Below, piece by piece: positions 10,394-61,568 of a DNA stretch of 64,000 nt. The notes below the pieces were generated by a model. The model saw only the letters and a list, made by a program, of their open reading frames with translations. It ran no database searches and had not been told where the DNA came from. Made by a program: the position numbers and the translations under genes. The stretch's first letter is position 1. Each line of letters begins with the position of its first letter. Source of the DNA: Candidatus Levybacteria bacterium RIFCSPLOWO2_01_FULL_42_15 (lineage in GTDB: Bacteria; Patescibacteriota; Microgenomatia; Levybacterales; UBA12049); assembly GCA_001784055.1 (NCBI GenBank), contig MFOZ01000019.1:18593-82592 (forward strand), in the 5' to 3' direction.

Positions 10394-11374
10394 ATGATTA
10401 TTTCGAGAACGCCACTTAGAATAAGTTTTGTTGGAGGAGGGAGCGATATCGCTTCTTTTTACCATCACACGTCTGGTGCTGTTGTTTCGACCGCAATTAA
10501 TAAATACATTTATATTGCAGTAAATAGGCAATTTGACGGAAGAATTCTTGTAAATTATTCAAAAACAGAAATTGTTACGAAAATTTCCGATATAGAAAAT
10601 AATTTAGTTAGAGAAGCGCTTAAATTAACAGGCGTAACGGGCGGAATTCACATAATATCCATAGCGGATATTCCTTCTGAAGGAACAGGAATGGGGTCAT
10701 CCAGTTCATATATTGTCGGACTTTTAAATGCGCTATATGCATATCAAGGAAAACATATAAATGCAGAAAAATTAGCAAAACAAGCATGTCAAATTGAGAT
10801 AGATATACTAAAAAAACCTATTGGTAAACAAGATCAATACATTGCCGCATACGGAGGGCTTCAACATATTAAGTTTAATTCAGATGAATCTGTTTATGTT
10901 GATCCAATTATTTGCAAGATGGAAACAAAAAAAACTCTTGAAAAGAGATTATTGCTTTTCTATACGGGTATTATGCGATCCGCAGACCCAATTTTGGCAA
11001 AACAAACAAAAAATATGGCATCCCTTACCGCAAAGAGGAAAATTATGAGTAAAATGGTACAGCTGGCAAGAGAGATGAGTAATGCGCTGAATAATAATAA
11101 ATTAAATGATTTTGGTAAGATGTTGCATGAAAATTGGATTTTTAAAACACAAATGGCACAGGGAGTTTCAAGTCTTCAGATTGATAGCTGGTATAAACTT
11201 GCCATAAAAAATGGAGCTATTGGCGGAAAGCTTTTGGGAGCGGGTGGGGGCGGTTTTCTCCTTTTTTATGCACCAGAAGAGAAACACGAGAAAATTATCA
11301 TCGCTCTTTCAGATTTATCCTATCAAAAGTTTTCATTCGAACCTCAAGGAAGTAAAATTATTTTTATTGATTAA
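10394..11374 (+). CDS. hddA: GHMP-family D-glycero-alpha-D-manno-heptose-7-phosphate kinase
   Basis: GHMP kinase motifs (PLRISFVGGGSDIASFY; GMGSSSS). Located between HddC/GmhB and GmhA. Confidence 0.8.
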   Translation: MIISRTPLRISFVGGGSDIASFYHHTSGAVVSTAINKYIYIAVNRQFDGRILVNYSKTEIVTKISDIENNLVREALKLTGVTGGIHIISIADIPSEGTGMGSSSSYIVGLLNALYAYQGKHINAEKLAKQACQIEIDILKKPIGKQDQYIAAYGGLQHIKFNSDESVYVDPIICKMETKKTLEKRLLLFYTGIMRSADPILAKQTKNMASLTAKRKIMSKMVQLAREMSNALNNNKLNDFGKMLHENWIFKTQMAQGVSSLQIDSWYKLAIKNGAIGGKLLGAGGGGFLLFYAPEEKHEKIIIALSDLSYQKFSFEPQGSKIIFID

Positions 11375-23781: not shown

Positions 23782-24330
23782 ATGAAAATAGGAATTGATG
23801 TAAGCCAGCTGGTATATTCTAACACTGGAGTAGCAAACTACTTAGAGAACTTGGTTCAATGTTTGCTTAAGGTTGATAAGGAGAATGAGTACGTATTCTT
23901 CTTTTCCTCTTTAAGAAGAAAATTTCTAATTTCTAATTTCAAATTTTTAAATAAATCCCAATTTTTAAATCCCAAAATTAAGATAAATACATTTAAAATA
24001 CCGCCTGTTTTATTAGATTTCCTTTGGAATAGGTTGCATATTGTACCAATAGAGTGGTTTATTGGAGATGTTGATGTATTTATTTCCTCGGATTGGACGC
24101 AGCCACCTACTAAAAAAGCCAAAAAAGCGACGATTCTGTACGATCTTATTGTGCATAAATATCCCAATGAAACGGACAAAAAAATTGTAGATACGCAAAG
24201 AAGAAGACTTACGTGGGTGAAAAAAGAATGCGATGTGGTATTTTGTATATCGGAATCAACAAAAAAGGATGCGATGGAGATTCTGGGAATTGAGAAGAGA
24301 AAGCTAAAGGTTATTTATCCCGGGATTTAA
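23782..24330 (+). CDS. Truncated GT4-family glycosyltransferase paralog (N-terminal Rossmann domain only)
   Basis: MKIGIDVSQLVYSNTGVANY... aligns with the N-domain of the downstream full-length GT4 (MIIGIDGNEANVQRRVGISEY...). It ends at KVIYPGI, the linker VVTYPGV in the full-length copy. No C-domain follows in any frame. Confidence 0.5.
   Translation: MKIGIDVSQLVYSNTGVANYLENLVQCLLKVDKENEYVFFFSSLRRKFLISNFKFLNKSQFLNPKIKINTFKIPPVLLDFLWNRLHIVPIEWFIGDVDVFISSDWTQPPTKKAKKATILYDLIVHKYPNETDKKIVDTQRRRLTWVKKECDVVFCISESTKKDAMEILGIEKRKLKVIYPGI
23921..23948. repeat. Heptanucleotide tandem repeat (AATTTCT)2(AATTTCA)(AATTTTT) inside the truncated GT4 CDS
   Basis: Direct reading of sequence 23921-23948, followed by a second AAATCCCA duplication. 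Confidence 0.8.
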
Positions 24331-24381: not shown

Positions 24382-25566
24382 ATGATAATAGGTATTGATG
24401 GGAATGAGGCGAACGTACAGAGACGAGTAGGTATTTCGGAGTACGGCTTCGAACTTCTTAAGAATTTCAAATTTCAAATTTCAAATTTCAAATTTCAAAT
24501 TTACCTTAAAAAGCCTCCCTTGCCTCATATGCCTAAGGAACGAGACGGATGGCGATATAGAATTGTTCGGCCAGAAAAGTTATGGACGCAGATAGGTCTA
24601 CCGATCGATTTGTTCTTTCATAAGCCTCGTCCGGATGTGTTTTTTAGCCCCACGCATTACGCTCCTCGTTTTTCTCCTGTTAACTGCGCAATTTCAATCA
24701 TGGACGTATCGTATTTGCGTTTTCCTTCTCTGTTTAATGCGTCGGATTTGTATCAGCTCAAGAACTGGACCGCTTATTCGGTAAAAAAAGCAGTGAAAAT
24801 CTTTACCATAAGTAAATCAAGTAAAAATGATATAATAAAAGCGTATGGTGTGTCTGAAGAAAAAGTAGTGGTGACATACCCGGGAGTAAAATTCAAAAAT
24901 ATGGTTCGACAAACTCACCATCCTGAGCAAAGTCGAAGGACAATGCAAAATTCAAAAGTACTAGAGAAATACGGAGTTGATAGGAATTATGTTCTTTTTG
25001 TTGGGACGCTGCAACCAAGGAAGAACATTGAACGGCTCATCGAAGCCTTCAGCCTTGTTTGTCATCCTGAACTTGTTTCAGGATCTCAATCAAAACGAGA
25101 TTCTGACCTTCGTCAGAATGACATCCAACTTATAATCGTTGGCAAGAAAGGATGGCTGTACGAGGACATCCTAGAGGCGCCCAAAAAATTTGGAGTAGAA
25201 AATAGCGTCAAGTTTCTGGAGTTTGTTCCAGAAGAGGATCTTTCGAGCCTCTATCAAAATGCTCTTTTTTTTATTCTTCCCAGTTTATACGAAGGGTTTG
25301 GGTTGCCGGTGCTTGAGGCAATGAGCTACGGGTGTCCTGTAATAACCAGTAATGTGAGTAGTCTTCCTGAAGTAGGGGGAGATGCGGTTCTGTACGTAGA
25401 TCCGTTAAGTACAAGTGATATCTGTGAAAAAATGAGGATGATATTTTTGGATGAAAAGCTTCGCGCCGAACTTCAAAAAAAGGGATACGAGCAGGTTAAA
25501 AAGTTCAACTGGGAAAAAACAGCAAAACAGACACTTGATATTTTAGAAAATCTCGCGCAAAAATAA
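24382..25566 (+). CDS. GT4-family (glycosyl transferase group 1) glycosyltransferase
   Basis: N-domain MIIGIDGNE... C-domain motifs LFVGTLQPRKNIERLIEAF, FILPSLYEGFGLPVLEAMSYGCPVITSNVSSLPEV (E-x7-E). Confidence 0.85.
   Translation: MIIGIDGNEANVQRRVGISEYGFELLKNFKFQISNFKFQIYLKKPPLPHMPKERDGWRYRIVRPEKLWTQIGLPIDLFFHKPRPDVFFSPTHYAPRFSPVNCAISIMDVSYLRFPSLFNASDLYQLKNWTAYSVKKAVKIFTISKSSKNDIIKAYGVSEEKVVVTYPGVKFKNMVRQTHHPEQSRRTMQNSKVLEKYGVDRNYVLFVGTLQPRKNIERLIEAFSLVCHPELVSGSQSKRDSDLRQNDIQLIIVGKKGWLYEDILEAPKKFGVENSVKFLEFVPEEDLSSLYQNALFFILPSLYEGFGLPVLEAMSYGCPVITSNVSSLPEVGGDAVLYVDPLSTSDICEKMRMIFLDEKLRAELQKKGYEQVKKFNWEKTAKQTLDILENLAQK
24463..24504. repeat. Heptanucleotide tandem repeat (AATTTCA)x5 plus AATTTAC inside the GT4 CDS
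   Basis: Direct reading. Encodes NFKFQISNFKFQIY. The unit length is not a multiple of 3. Confidence 0.9.
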
Positions 25567-43359: not shown

Positions 43360-43829
43360 AAAACCCCTATCTTGTTGCGTTTGGCATTATTTTGATTATT
43401 GTAATTCCCTTTGGGGTCTTTTTTGCCATCAATAGGACCCAAAAATCTCCATTGCCTAATTCGTCCTCTCAATCTTCCGAAGATACACAAGAAGAAATCC
43501 TCCCTCTTAATCCCGATGAGCTCAATTTGATTTTTGAGGCACGGCGAGATAAAAAAGCGGTGAAGTTTAGCATAGGAAACACAAAGGGAATCACTTCTAT
43601 TGAGTATGAGATAAGTTACCTTGCGGATGGGGAAATTCCAAGAGGAGCTATTGGACAAATTGAGGTAAACCCATCGGAAAGATCGGTTGCAACTAATTAT
43701 ATAGATTTAGGAACGTGTTCTTCAGGAAGGTGCAAATATGATGAAGGGGTTACTTCGGTTAAGCTCATTCTTAAAATTATAAAAACCGACGGAAAAATCT
43801 ATTCAGCGGAAAAAGAACTAGAGCTTTAA
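43356..43829 (+). CDS. Hypothetical membrane-anchored secreted protein with Cys pair (CSSGRC)
   Basis: N-terminal TM. No homology recognised. Confidence 0.35.
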   Translation: MKNPYLVAFGIILIIVIPFGVFFAINRTQKSPLPNSSSQSSEDTQEEILPLNPDELNLIFEARRDKKAVKFSIGNTKGITSIEYEISYLADGEIPRGAIGQIEVNPSERSVATNYIDLGTCSSGRCKYDEGVTSVKLILKIIKTDGKIYSAEKELEL

Positions 43830-43951
43830 TTCTTCATTCATTCCTCTCGTTCTCCATTTAGTGCTTTTTTCACATTGAATACGCTATCTAGGTTTCTTTG
43901 TGGCTTTTTGGGGCTTGACAATGTATGGCAAACTGTTCAAAATGGATTTAA

Positions 43952-43981
43952 GTGGGATAAAGTGGGATAAAGTGGAACAAA
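43952..43981 (+). promoter_or_regulatory. Putative MraZ operator: three 10-bp-phased direct repeats GTGGGATAAA / GTGGGATAAA / GTGGAACAAA, preceded by TTGACA-N17-CAAAAT promoter-like elements (43915-43943)
   Basis: Direct reading. MraZ in E. coli, B. subtilis and mycoplasmas binds tandem GTGG[G/T] direct repeats in its own promoter region. The repeats end 15 nt before the mraZ ATG. Confidence 0.55.
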
Positions 43982-43996
43982 AAGAAAGGCAGGGAT

Positions 43997-44443
43997 ATGA
44001 TGCTTCTTGGACAGTACGAAGCAAAATTAGGAGCAAAAAATAGAATAGCGTTCCCAAAAAAACTAAGAGCAATATTGGGAGACAAGCTTATCATCACGAA
44101 AGGATATGAAAACTCGCTCATTATTGTTTCCGAGAAAGGGTGGAAAGCACTTCTTGAAGGAACAGAGGGAAGGCCGTTTATCCATTCAGAAACCAGAGAT
44201 ACGCAACGATTCATCCTTGGAGGAGCAAGCTTCATGGAGCTTGATAGTAAAGGAAGGTTTATATTGCCTTTATACTTACGAAGCTTTGCAAGAATTAAAG
44301 AGGAAACGATATTCCTAGGCCTATCTCGCTACGTGGAAATGTGGGATAGAGATGTTTGGCTTGAATACACAAAGAACCTTGATAAGCATATTGGATTAAT
44401 TTCAGAGCGGCTGCTTAAGGGAACTGAAGAGAAAAGTGAATAG
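43997..44443 (+). CDS. mraZ: Transcriptional regulator MraZ
   Basis: Duplicated SpoVT/AbrB-like halves (AKLGAKNRIAFPKKLR...; ELDSKGRFILPLYLR). 148 aa. First gene of the dcw cluster. Confidence 0.9.
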   Translation: MMLLGQYEAKLGAKNRIAFPKKLRAILGDKLIITKGYENSLIIVSEKGWKALLEGTEGRPFIHSETRDTQRFILGGASFMELDSKGRFILPLYLRSFARIKEETIFLGLSRYVEMWDRDVWLEYTKNLDKHIGLISERLLKGTEEKSE

Positions 44444-45368
44444 CACATTTCATACGCCGGTACTTGTACAAGAGGTACTTTTATTTCTTGCCGTACAGAA
44501 GGATAAAACGTATATTGACGCAACGATAGGGGGAGGAGGACACGGGTTTGAGATTTTAAAACGAGACGGGATAGTTTTGGGGATAGACGTTGATGAAGAA
44601 GCAATTGATTACGTAAAGAAGATATTAAGAGATAAAGATATTAAGATATTGGGAGAGAAATATGACAGTTCACTTAATATCTCACTATCTCAATATCCTG
44701 GTATCACTTTAGTACGAGGAAATTTTAAAGACATAGCAAGGATTGTACAGGGAACAGAATTTGAGAGGGTAGAAGGAATTTTGTTTGACTTGGGAGTATC
44801 GAGCATGCAGTTGGATACTTCCAAAAGGGGATTCAGTTTTCAAAAAGAAGCTCCATTGGACATGCGCATGGATCAAAGGCTGCACGTTAAGGCGATGGAT
44901 CTTCTTAACGGATTAACAAAAAAGGAGTTATATGAATTATTTACTAAGTTTGGTGAAGAGCGTTTTGCTCACGCCATTTCTGGTGGTATTGTCAGCACCC
45001 GTGGAATAAAAAAAATTACCACAACCAAAGAATTGGCAATGTTAGTAGAGAAGATTGCGGGAAGAAGACATGACATCCATCCGGTAACAAAAGTATTTCA
45101 AGCCTTACGAATTGCGGTTAACGATGAGTTGCATAACCTAGAACTTGGCTTAACAGATTCCGTTGAGCTTCTTAACAAAAACGGAAAGCTTGTTGTTATA
45201 TCCTTTCACTCATTAGAGGATAGGATTGTCAAAAGAACATTTTTACGGTTTGAAAAAGAAGGGAGAGGAACGGTAATAACAAAGAAGCCGGTGCGCCCGA
45301 GCCAAAAGGAAGTTTTCTTAAACAGACGAGCAAGAAGCGCACTGCTTAGGGTATTTGCAAAAGCATAA
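44436..45368 (+). CDS. rsmH: 16S rRNA (cytosine1402-N4)-methyltransferase
   Basis: HTPVLVQEVL...YIDATIGGGGH; FDLGVSSMQLD; ISFHSLEDRIVK. Confidence 0.9.
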   Translation: MNSTFHTPVLVQEVLLFLAVQKDKTYIDATIGGGGHGFEILKRDGIVLGIDVDEEAIDYVKKILRDKDIKILGEKYDSSLNISLSQYPGITLVRGNFKDIARIVQGTEFERVEGILFDLGVSSMQLDTSKRGFSFQKEAPLDMRMDQRLHVKAMDLLNGLTKKELYELFTKFGEERFAHAISGGIVSTRGIKKITTTKELAMLVEKIAGRRHDIHPVTKVFQALRIAVNDELHNLELGLTDSVELLNKNGKLVVISFHSLEDRIVKRTFLRFEKEGRGTVITKKPVRPSQKEVFLNRRARSALLRVFAKA

Positions 45369-47429: not shown

Positions 47430-48689
47430 ATGTGGCAAGAGATTAAGAATGTATATCACTTGCTGGTTGCGGTTGCGGCGCAGGTGTGGTTTGGGTTTCC
47501 GTCAAGAAAGCTTAAGGTGATTGGGGTTACCGGAACCGATGGAAAGACAACTACGGTGAACCTGATTTATCATATACTACACACGTGCGGATATTCGGTC
47601 TCCATGATTTCAACCGTTGGAGCAATCATTAACGGAGAAAAAAAAGATCTTGGTTTTCATGTGACAAATCCTTCCTCATGGCAATTAAATTCCTTTATCA
47701 AGAAAGCGGCAGAAAAAAGTAGCTATCTTGTTCTTGAGGTTACATCTCACGGAATAGATCAGCATCGTATTTTTGGCATTCCTTTTGCAATTGGAGTGAT
47801 GACCAACGTTACAAACGAACATCTAGACTATCACAAAACGTATGATCGCTATCTTCAGACAAAAGTAAAATTGTTAAAACGATCCCGTATTGCCATTGTA
47901 AATCAGGATGACGGATCGCATAAAGCGATTATGCTGCTTCTTAAAGATGGAAACCGAATGGATCGAAAAGTAATTACGTATGGGAAGACGAAGTCTCCCA
48001 TGGTGAATCCGCTTGTCTACGCCTTTAAGACAAAATTGATCGGTAATTTTAATCGATCAAACGAGGGAGCTGCAATCGCAACTGTTCTTGCCCTAAACGT
48101 TAAGGAATCTTGCATCAAAGCCGCTTGTGAAAGCTTTGAGGCTCCAATTGGACGACAACAGGTAGTATATGAAGGCGATTTTACCGTAATGATTGATTTT
48201 GCCCACACCCCCAATGCTATTGAAGAGTTTCTACATTCGATCAAACCTGGTGTCAAGGGGAGACTCATTCACGTTTTTGGAAGCGCGGGAGAGCGCGACA
48301 GAAAGAAAAGACCAGAAATGGGAAAGGCATCAGCTAACTATTCGGATGTTATTATCTTAACTGCAGAGGATCCCCGGTCGGAATCGGTTGCAAAAATCAT
48401 AAACGAGATTGAATCAGGAATCGTTAATAATTCAAAATTCCCCGGCCTCGCTCCGCGAAGCCTCGCCAAAGGCGGGCGAAGCGGGACGGGCAAAATTCAA
48501 AGTGCAAAATTGTTCAAAATATCAAACAGACAGGAAGCAATCAATACTGCAATTAAAATAGCGCAAAAGGGAGATTTTGTTCTCGTTACGGGAAAAGGGC
48601 ATGAGAAGTCTATGAACTTTGGACGCGGAGAAATACCGTGGAGTGAATATGACAGCGTAAAAGAAGCACTTGTAGCAAGAAAATTATGA
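47430..48689 (+). CDS. murE: Mur ligase, MurE-like (UDP-MurNAc-L-Ala-D-Glu:diamino-acid ligase) with very short N-terminal domain and an in-frame repeat-element insertion
   Basis: P-loop VIGVTGTDGKTTT at residue about 33. EDPR (DNPR-like) motif. C-terminal insert KFPGLAPRSLAKGGRSGTGKIQSAK, encoded by the GC-rich element. Confidence 0.7.
   Translation: MWQEIKNVYHLLVAVAAQVWFGFPSRKLKVIGVTGTDGKTTTVNLIYHILHTCGYSVSMISTVGAIINGEKKDLGFHVTNPSSWQLNSFIKKAAEKSSYLVLEVTSHGIDQHRIFGIPFAIGVMTNVTNEHLDYHKTYDRYLQTKVKLLKRSRIAIVNQDDGSHKAIMLLLKDGNRMDRKVITYGKTKSPMVNPLVYAFKTKLIGNFNRSNEGAAIATVLALNVKESCIKAACESFEAPIGRQQVVYEGDFTVMIDFAHTPNAIEEFLHSIKPGVKGRLIHVFGSAGERDRKKRPEMGKASANYSDVIILTAEDPRSESVAKIINEIESGIVNNSKFPGLAPRSLAKGGRSGTGKIQSAKLFKISNRQEAINTAIKIAQKGDFVLVTGKGHEKSMNFGRGEIPWSEYDSVKEALVARKL
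48419..48487. repeat. GC-rich intragenic repeat element (copy inside murE), same family as 32329-32442
   Basis: See the 32329-32442 repeat feature. About 75% GC in roughly 30% GC surroundings. Flanked by aattcaaa(a/g) direct repeats. Confidence 0.85.
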
Positions 48690-60557: not shown

Positions 60558-61568
60558 ATGATGCGGCTTTTAGGGCTTACTATAATGTCGTTTGTTATCA
60601 GTGGGACTTTGTTTGTGCCATTTATCGATTTTCTCTACAAAATAAAGCTCAGAAGAAGAATACAAAAAACAAAAGATATCTTTAACAACAACACTCCTCT
60701 TTTTGATCGTTTTAACGCGTGGAAGGTGGGAACGCCATTCGGAGGAGGGCTTCTTATTGTAGTGGTTGTTCCCGTATTAACACTTTGGGCATATGGTCTT
60801 TTTGAAACAAAAATATCATTCTGGCAACTATTCGTTTTGCTCTTTTCTTTTATTGGATTTGGACTTCTTGGTCTTTATGATGATCTTAAAAAACTTACCA
60901 ATGAAAAAAAATCCGTTGTTTTTGGATTGAGGTTTCGTCATAAGTTTTTCATCCAATGGATTCTCGCATTTTTAATCGCCTCTGTTCTTTATTTTCAGCT
61001 TGGATTTGATTTCATTTTCATCCGCGGATTTGGACTCGCAAACCTAGGATTTCTTTTCATCCCGTTTGCGGCGTTTGTGATTGTTTCTTTTGTAAACGCA
61101 TTTAATATTGCGGATGGACTTGATGGGTTAGCGTCCGGTCTTTTTCTCATCTGCATGGTTGCGTTTTTGGCAATCTCCTCCTCGCAACTGGATAACTATC
61201 TGGGAATTTTTATCGCAATTATTTTAGGGAGCGTTGCGGCATTCCTTTATTTTAATATTTATAAAGCGAGGCTTTGGCTTGGAGATACGGGATCTCTTGC
61301 TCTTGGAGCAGTGCTTGCGGTTGTTGGACTTTTGACAGGAAAAACGATTGCGCTTGCCGTCATAGGAGGAATTTTTGTTCTTGAAATTGGCTCATCGCTT
61401 GTGCAAATTCTTGGAAAAAAGATTCTTGGAAAAAAGATTCTTCCCGCAGCCCCTTTCCATCTGTATTTGCAATACAGGGGATGGGAAGAGCCAAAAATTG
61501 TGATGAGAGCTTGGCTTTTGGGATTTCTTATGGCAGTTTTAGGATTGTATATAGCATTCGCCGTGTAA
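60558..61568 (+). CDS. mraY: Phospho-N-acetylmuramoyl-pentapeptide transferase
   Basis: NAFNIADGLDGLASG. DTGSLALGA. 10 TM helices. Confidence 0.9.
   Translation: MMRLLGLTIMSFVISGTLFVPFIDFLYKIKLRRRIQKTKDIFNNNTPLFDRFNAWKVGTPFGGGLLIVVVVPVLTLWAYGLFETKISFWQLFVLLFSFIGFGLLGLYDDLKKLTNEKKSVVFGLRFRHKFFIQWILAFLIASVLYFQLGFDFIFIRGFGLANLGFLFIPFAAFVIVSFVNAFNIADGLDGLASGLFLICMVAFLAISSSQLDNYLGIFIAIILGSVAAFLYFNIYKARLWLGDTGSLALGAVLAVVGLLTGKTIALAVIGGIFVLEIGSSLVQILGKKILGKKILPAAPFHLYLQYRGWEEPKIVMRAWLLGFLMAVLGLYIAFAV

Follow-up and report, generated by a model that had tools for sequence, protein, structure and literature searches.

Introduction

In Escherichia coli, MraZ represses the operon to which its own gene belongs (Eraso et al., 2014, as cited in PMC8475190 and PMC12957436). 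The published operator consists of GTG(G/T) boxes separated by spacers of six nucleotides, and the number of boxes is three in most bacteria and four in Mycoplasma genitalium (PMC12957436). The mra promoter (Pmra) of E. coli K-12, which we read directly from the sequence, has the order TTGACA-N17-TAAACT-N7-GTGGG-N5-GTGGG-N5-GTGGG and is located ahead of mraZ. In Bacillus subtilis three GTGG[A/T]G repeats are needed for repression, as are the residues R15 and R86 of the protein, and the repeat triple is unique in the genome of this species (bioRxiv 10.1101/2022.02.09.479790). For the Mollicutes a box consensus AAAGTG[T/G] is given (Fisunov, 2016, as cited in PMC8475190), and the MraZ of M. genitalium represses the cluster (PMC8475190). 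Transcription in M. genitalium starts inside box 1 and the binding of MraZ is cooperative; the cryoEM structure places one MraZ subunit on each box, with base contacts made by Lys13, Arg15, and Arg86 (PMC12957436).

A search of the literature found no description of MraZ boxes in Patescibacteria. In this study we analyse a stretch of 64,000 nucleotides from Candidatus Levybacteria bacterium RIFCSPLOWO2_01_FULL_42_15 (contig MFOZ01000019.1), hereafter called the window, together with the mraZ loci of related genomes. Judging from the sequence and from the described systems, a promoter-proximal array of GTGG boxes in the window is very probably an MraZ operator that would provide negative autoregulation of the dcw unit.

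The Promoter and the GTGG Array in the Window

The promoter-operator region upstream of mraZ reads cTTGACAatgtatggcaaactgttCAAAATggatttaaGTGGGataaaGTGGGataaaGTGGAacaaaaagaaaGGCAGGgatATGATG, and the features of the locus are collected in Table 1. A preliminary description of the locus had placed a TTGACA-N17-CAAAAT promoter, triple 10-bp-phased GTGGG repeats, and a downstream mraZ in this region, and every coordinate of that placement turned out to be correct. The repeats are three 10-mers, GTGGGATAAA at 43952–43961, again GTGGGATAAA at 43962–43971, and GTGGAACAAA at 43972–43981, with GTGG cores at 43952, 43962, and 43972. The period is exactly 10 bp, the 4-nt cores are separated by 6-nt spacers, and the distance from the end of the boxes to the mraZ start is 16–19 nt.

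Table 1. Position, strand, and supporting observation of the features at the Levybacteria mraZ locus (window coordinates).
Feature	Position	Strand	Basis or remark
Inverted repeat TAGTG-N18-CGCTA, promoter-associated, membership in the operator uncertain	43859–43886		Lineage conservation
-35 hexamer TTGACA of the Pmra-like mraZ promoter	43915–43920	+	Conserved, about 2 bits per position in the anchored alignment
Promoter spacer, 17 nt	43921–43937	+	Read from the sequence
-10 hexamer CAAAAT, a conserved non-consensus form	43938–43943	+	1.4–2.0 bits per position
Box 0 AAAATGGATT, core ATGG 43942–43945, degenerate, overlapping the -10	43939–43948	+	In phase with box 1
Box 1 TAAGTGGGAT, core GTGG 43952–43955	43949–43958	+	Expected transcription start at its 5' edge
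Box 2 AAAGTGGGAT, core GTGG 43962–43965	43959–43968	+	Repeat match and lineage conservation
Box 3 AAAGTGGAAC, core GTGG 43972–43975	43969–43978	+	Repeat match; absent in a subset of species
GGCAGG leader motif within GAAAGGCAGG, just before the start codon	43988–43993	+	Lineage enrichment
mraZ coding sequence, 148 aa from the ATG at 43997	43997–44443	+	Pfam PF02381, E = 3.8e-24, two stretches
rsmH (mraW), overlapping the end of mraZ, second gene behind the promoter	44436–45368	+	Pfam Methyltransf_5, E = 7.4e-89

The pattern GTGG-N6-GTGG-N6-GTGG is present in a single copy when both strands of the 64 kb are searched, and it appeared in none of 100 dinucleotide-preserving shuffles. Tandem Repeats Finder reports the array at 43950–43975 with a 10-bp period, 2.6 copies, and 100% matches. 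The same program lists other perfect or near-perfect tandem repeats at 24463–24502, 23921–23950, and 61407–61442; they are made of AATTTCA (5.7 copies, 100% identity), AATTTCT nearby (4.3 copies), and the 15-bp unit ATTCTTGGAAAAAAG (2.4 copies, 100%).

Scored with a 10-nt box weight matrix that was derived solely from other species, the window being left out, the triple reaches 36.8 bits, against a maximum of 14.9 bits in 20 shuffled windows and 13.2 bits for the best unrelated three-box site of the window. For two boxes the best other site scores 14.6 bits and the shuffle maximum is 15.0 bits, and no further MraZ target emerged in the 64 kb by either score. When GTGGG-N5-GTGGG was searched in the window with one mismatch allowed, the candidates were two unrelated sites at 11234 and 21455, which were rejected. 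The preliminary description had proposed to define an MraZ regulon by a genome scan for additional GTGGG-N5 arrays; the scan was run over the 64-kb window and yielded no extra member there.

The promoter is the sole sigma-70-like match between 43300 and 44500 and agrees at 10 of 12 positions, but 2.7 matches are expected by chance and the scan alone is not significant. The promoter is credible because it is conserved across the lineage, as described below, and not on account of the motif scan.

MraZ and the Downstream Genes

An alternative start of mraZ is the second ATG at 44000, where the homologues begin to align. The nearest homologues of the protein are 63–81% identical and belong to metagenome-assembled genomes of Candidatus Levybacteria and other Patescibacteria. 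Many third-party assembled MAG records titled “uncultured Gammaproteobacteria bacterium” (L003, L007, L009, L012, L014, and others) encode an MraZ that is about 70% identical to that of Levybacteria and share the Levybacteria promoter-operator; these titles are probably placeholder mislabels.

With 148 aa and two PF02381 stretches, the protein agrees with the MraZ family, in which two SpoVT/AbrB-like halves stand in tandem in a chain of about 150 aa and each half has a DXXXR motif. Residues 2–139 align with the solved Mycoplasma MraZ structures 1n0e and 9qlr. Within a gap-free region K14, R16, and R87 align to K13, R15, and R86 of M. genitalium MraZ, and the three residues are invariant in 25 Levybacteria MraZ proteins. 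The second DXXXR motif is intact (D83-S-K-G-R87). The first one reads G12-A-K-N-R16, a change of Asp to Gly that keeps the Lys and the Arg, and the lineage consensus likewise has G-A-K.

After rsmH follow a 94-aa FtsL-like ORF, a class B PBP, two Mur ligases, MurB, and MurA, and then a nucleotidyltransferase, GNAT, and GlmS, all of them on the same strand as mraZ. From mraZ through the PBP the genes overlap or lie less than 15 nt apart. The 91-nt gap before the gene at 47430 holds the sequence TAGAGA-N17-TATAAT, which ends 6 nt before the ATG and may be an internal promoter. Because of this possible promoter, control of the whole cluster by the operator is not assured.

Comparison with the Described Operators

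The likeness to E. coli Pmra is near base-for-base in layout, since both have TTGACA, a 17-nt spacer, a -10 hexamer, and three phased GTGG boxes, and in E. coli the array stands directly upstream of mraZ-rsmH-ftsL-ftsI, as it does in the dcw order of the window. The two differ in the distance from the -10 to the first box (7 nt in E. coli, 8 nt in the window) and in the -10 itself (TAAACT and CAAAAT, respectively). In contrast to E. coli, the boxes of the window have A-rich flanks (AAAGTGGGA), the third box is GTGGA, and a degenerate box lies in phase over the -10. The window system is moreover that of an uncultivated CPR bacterium.

The operator of M. genitalium and other Mollicutes is similar in its GTG(G/T) core, in the 6-nt spacers, and in the AAA that precedes the core; a start site in or beside box 1 would be shared as well, and K13, R15, and R86 correspond to K14, R16, and R87 of the window. 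The four-box array of M. genitalium would be mirrored by the possible fourth box of the window, although M. genitalium has four strong boxes and the window has three strong ones and one weak. Whereas the Mollicutes core is GTG(G/T), that of the window is always GTGG and never GTGT, and the window protein has Gly for the Asp found in the first DXXXR motif of M. genitalium MraZ. The B. subtilis promoter resembles the window in its three GTGG repeats with a 10-bp period; its repeats are GTGG[A/T]G spaced by 4 nt, whereas in Levybacteria GTGG[G/T/A] alternates with an A-rich spacer. The resemblance to the MraZ boxes of E. coli, B. subtilis, and Mollicutes that had been claimed for this region is thus found in all three comparisons.

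Conservation across Levybacteria

The mraZ loci of 80 species-level genomes of the Levybacteria lineage were collected, 400 kb in total. The MraZ identity of these loci is 63–76%, so near-identical strains are excluded. The promoter is kept in 76 of the 80 other species, that is, in 77 of 81 sequences when the window is included. Its conserved -35 form is TTGAC[A/C/G], and the spacer among these 77 promoters is 17 nt long, or 18 nt in five loci. The -10 is CAAAAT or CAGAAT in nearly all of them, and the first GTGG begins 8 nt past this hexamer in 71 promoters and 9 nt past it in 6. Box 3 is an exact GTGG in 43 of the 77 promoters and a relaxed one in 59, and it is absent in a subset.

Box counts refer to the 79 species whose available upstream sequence is 100 nt or longer. 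Upstream of mraZ, an exact GTGG-N6-GTGG is found in 57 of the 79 and the exact triple in 44; the array is present in 71 when the middle core may be nTGG or nGGG. A total of 103 GTGG pairs lie within 150 nt upstream of mraZ, against 5 in the remaining 400 kb on both strands, which corresponds to an approximately 1350-fold density. The comparison of related genomes that had been proposed for this locus thus shows the repeats to be kept, and their loss from orthologous mraZ upstream regions, which would have spoken against the operator, was not what the 79 species displayed.

A footprint alignment of 71 sequences (70 other species and the window), anchored on the -35, gave the consensus TTt.CctcTTGACA.....t.aaAA.tg.ttCAAAATGg.atAAAGTGGga.AAAgTGGGAaaaagtgGgaca. 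Its information content is about 2 bits at TTGACA, at CAAAAT, and at the G's of each box, and about 0–0.3 bits in the first half of the spacer and past box 3. The box consensus of the lineage is AAAGTGGGA, and the pooled boxes read A-A-A-G-T-G-G-G-A-[A/C].

These data bear on the idea that the array is a tandem duplication made by chance or slippage and has no function. Recent slippage would yield identical 10-mers such as boxes 1 and 2, and a separate 10-bp duplication does lie 50 bp upstream. Given that the phase and position of the array are kept in 71 of 79 species despite diverged surrounding bases, and given its absence from the shuffles, we assign a practically negligible probability to this idea.

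Association of the Array with mraZ in Other Bacteria

A metagenome collection was scanned for (AAGTGG-N4)x3 without reference to any gene, and at least 120 arrays were found. Among the 120 arrays listed, 93 precede, by no more than 800 nt and in the same orientation, an ORF matching an MraZ profile, and for 11 a nearby contig end prevents a judgement. Of the other 16, about half carry extra copies of the unit, as would be seen in satellite repeats. A weak MraZ match accompanies one further array. Since 93 of the 120 listed arrays stand before mraZ, and this in very different bacteria, the array is close to diagnostic of an mraZ promoter. MraZ is predicted as the binding protein because of the E. 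coli layout, the published operator definition, the contact residues, and this metagenome scan.

It could be argued that another DNA-binding protein occupies the site and that the adjacency to mraZ is incidental. Boxes 1 and 2 read GTGGGATAA, which differs by one inserted G from the reverse complement of a DnaA box and resembles TGTGGATAA, as a DnaA-box-like cluster would. In the relatives, however, the ATAA part is variable, and GTGGGAAAAA, GTGGTCCAAA, or GTGGAACAAA is found instead; the base preceding GTGG is A in 82% of boxes and not T. The DnaA reading does not hold, since conservation is confined to the GTGG core and the AAA before it, and this conserved core equals the experimentally defined MraZ box. 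The tracking of mraZ by the array in the metagenome listing is a further argument against it, and we regard the involvement of such a protein as quite improbable.

A Degenerate Fourth Box and Boxes in the Promoter Spacer

Box 0 precedes box 1 by exactly 10 nt and raises the matrix score by about 3.4 bits. In the 71-sequence footprint, the two positions behind CAAAAT, G and g, hold 1.5 and 0.9 bits of information. From these sequence features we infer that box 0 would be an extra contact for MraZ. Ten species have ATGGG at this position, and nine of the ten are without box 3 (Fisher p = 2.7e-6, not corrected for phylogeny); in the species with an ATGGG box 0 it looks as if the three-box array had slid one helical turn upstream. 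The overlap of box 0 with the -10 could explain why the unusual CAAAAT has been retained.

Some species carry boxes even further upstream. Perfect GTGG boxes inside the spacer between -35 and -10 are found in seven loci (L021, L026, L027, L033, L037, L039, and L040), and those of L027 are in phase with the downstream boxes (TTGACAAGTGGGAAAAAGTGGTACAAAAT), giving up to six phased positions. The lineage consensus in this part of the spacer reads aaAA.tg. The promoter spacer of the window itself has no good in-phase box, the score contribution being approximately -6 bits.

A Model of Autorepression by MraZ

The -10 ends at 43943, and transcription is therefore expected to start at about 43950–43952, given the usual distance from -10 to +1 and the parallel with M. 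genitalium. The 10-bp period puts all boxes on the same side of the helix. MraZ probably represses its own promoter, since the boxes cover the expected transcription start. MraZ made from the adjacent downstream gene would bind the boxes cooperatively as an oligomer, with one subunit per box, and at each GTGG the cradle formed by Lys14, Arg16, and Arg87 of one subunit would enter the major groove. The array would span the edge of the -10, the expected start (~43950), and the first 30 transcribed bases, with boxes 1–3 at roughly +1 to +30. Bound MraZ should then block or trap RNA polymerase, at the stage of binding or of escape, so that mraZ-rsmH-ftsL-PBP, and perhaps the Mur genes further on, would be under negative autoregulation. 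Four points, namely MraZ binding itself, the site of the start, repression as the direction of regulation, and the length of the controlled transcript, are proposed here from the position of the elements and from homologous systems. With the same reservation for binding and repression, the conserved autoregulation of the dcw operon suggested by the preliminary description is supported by the conservation of the array and by the known systems.

With a start near 43950 all three boxes would be part of the transcript, and the G runs recur every 10 nt; it has therefore to be weighed whether the boxes function in the RNA of the 5' leader and not as a DNA operator, either by forming a G-rich structure, perhaps a two-tier G-quadruplex, or as an RNA repeat recognized by a protein. 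The region 43700–44150 gave no Rfam match at E ≤ 1, and the fold of 43950–44020 (-5.8 kcal/mol, z = +0.26) is no better than that of shuffles. Conservation is equally strong at AAAGTG and at the G runs, a pattern that a G-quadruplex does not call for, and the 10-bp period and the fixed distance from the -10 are features of the DNA helix. In addition, the in-phase boxes that some species have between -35 and -10 lie in untranscribed sequence. Taken together, these observations make an RNA-level role very improbable.

A different question is whether MraZ, once bound, acts mainly as an activator or as a dual regulator, helping polymerase onto the weak CAAAAT promoter, for instance. A conserved non-consensus -10 could need such help. 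Fisunov and colleagues are said to have reported in 2016 that overproduction of MraZ in Mycoplasma gallisepticum raised dcw expression, which counts in favor of activation. Filamentation of M. gallisepticum is linked to increased FtsZ in the account given by PMC8475190. On the other hand, the boxes follow the -10 and cover the expected start, which is where repressors typically bind, and the matching layout in E. coli, B. subtilis, and M. genitalium gives repression. Activation is thus unlikely as the main role, and autorepression is the reading that we retain.

An Inverted Repeat Upstream of the Promoter

A second conserved element lies upstream of the -35. The sequence TAGTG-N17/18-CACTA is present in 67 of 77 sequences at a constant distance from the promoter, its right half usually ending 18 nt before the -35; the repeat as a whole is located about 40–65 nt upstream of the -35 in loci L001–L080. 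Exact copies in the 400 kb of loci number 36, and 33 of them are upstream of mraZ. Eleven loci (e.g., L025, L030, and L041) add a third half-site in the arrangement CACTA-N4-TAGTG.

A 10-bp tandem duplication, TTTGTGGCTT / TTTGGGGCTT, occupies 43897–43916 of the window, upstream of and overlapping the -35. Because of this duplication, the inverted repeat of the window is 28 nt from the -35 and not 18, a shift of one helical turn, and the extra GTGG at 43900 has the same cause. The GTGG at 43900 and the GGGG at 43910 were considered as additional upstream boxes and rejected, since they arise from the duplication and are out of phase with the operator.

As an RNA structure the inverted repeat is weak. 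The core pairs showed no compensatory changes when examined for covariation, inward extension of the stem is near chance, and the mean z of the hairpin is -1.4. An intrinsic terminator or RNA hairpin at this place was considered and is unsupported, as the terminator scan was empty and there is no covariation. Owing to the lack of covariation and the weak fold, a protein site seems likelier than a terminator, and the sequence pattern suggests that the repeat may be the site of a second regulator.

The GGCAGG Leader

The short leader between the boxes and mraZ also holds a conserved motif. GGC[AG]GG occurs at most 60 nt from the mraZ start in 65 of 81 sequences; it lies 0–10 nt before the start in 51 loci and 21–30 nt before it in 14, and in most cases it is part of GAAAGGCAGG. 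GGCAGG is approximately 55-fold enriched in mraZ leaders compared with the rest of the loci. In examples with a distant motif, such as L007 (ggcaggCCCCGCtaaGCGGGGtaaaaaaATG), a GC-rich hairpin can be seen between GGCAGG and the start. Judged by sequence and position, GGCAGG is probably a ribosome-binding region of uncertain role; it may represent a variant Shine-Dalgarno sequence or an element for translational control.

Concerning translation signals in general, the genes of the window that start between 40475 and 61585 are mostly without a recognizable Shine-Dalgarno sequence, and several have TATAAT 2–8 nt before the ATG (47430, 50143, and 60558). A TATAAT so close to the ATG points to transcripts that may be leaderless or nearly so.

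Conclusion

The probable MraZ operator of Levybacteria is an ordinary example of a well-known element, and a specialist would expect it at this place. Only the upstream inverted repeat, the box that overlaps the -10, and the GGCAGG leader go beyond the textbook. Based on these three, one may tentatively view the Levybacteria dcw promoter as a multi-input control region and not as a plain three-box MraZ operator, a possibility that we consider rather doubtful at present. Under such a view the MraZ boxes, four to six of them in phase, may reach across the -10 and, in some species, into the spacer; the inverted repeat could be the site for a second cell-division regulator in these ultrasmall bacteria; and the GGCAGG leader, sometimes separated from the start codon by a hairpin, could add translational control.

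The layout of the region is nearly superimposable on that of E. coli, and an ancient origin of the MraZ autoregulation of dcw is thereby supported. Among bacterial promoter-operator designs, one of the most widely conserved is extended to the Candidate Phyla Radiation, and for a lineage with almost no experimentally known transcription signals the locus provides a testable set of elements, namely a -35, a -10, an approximate start, and an operator.
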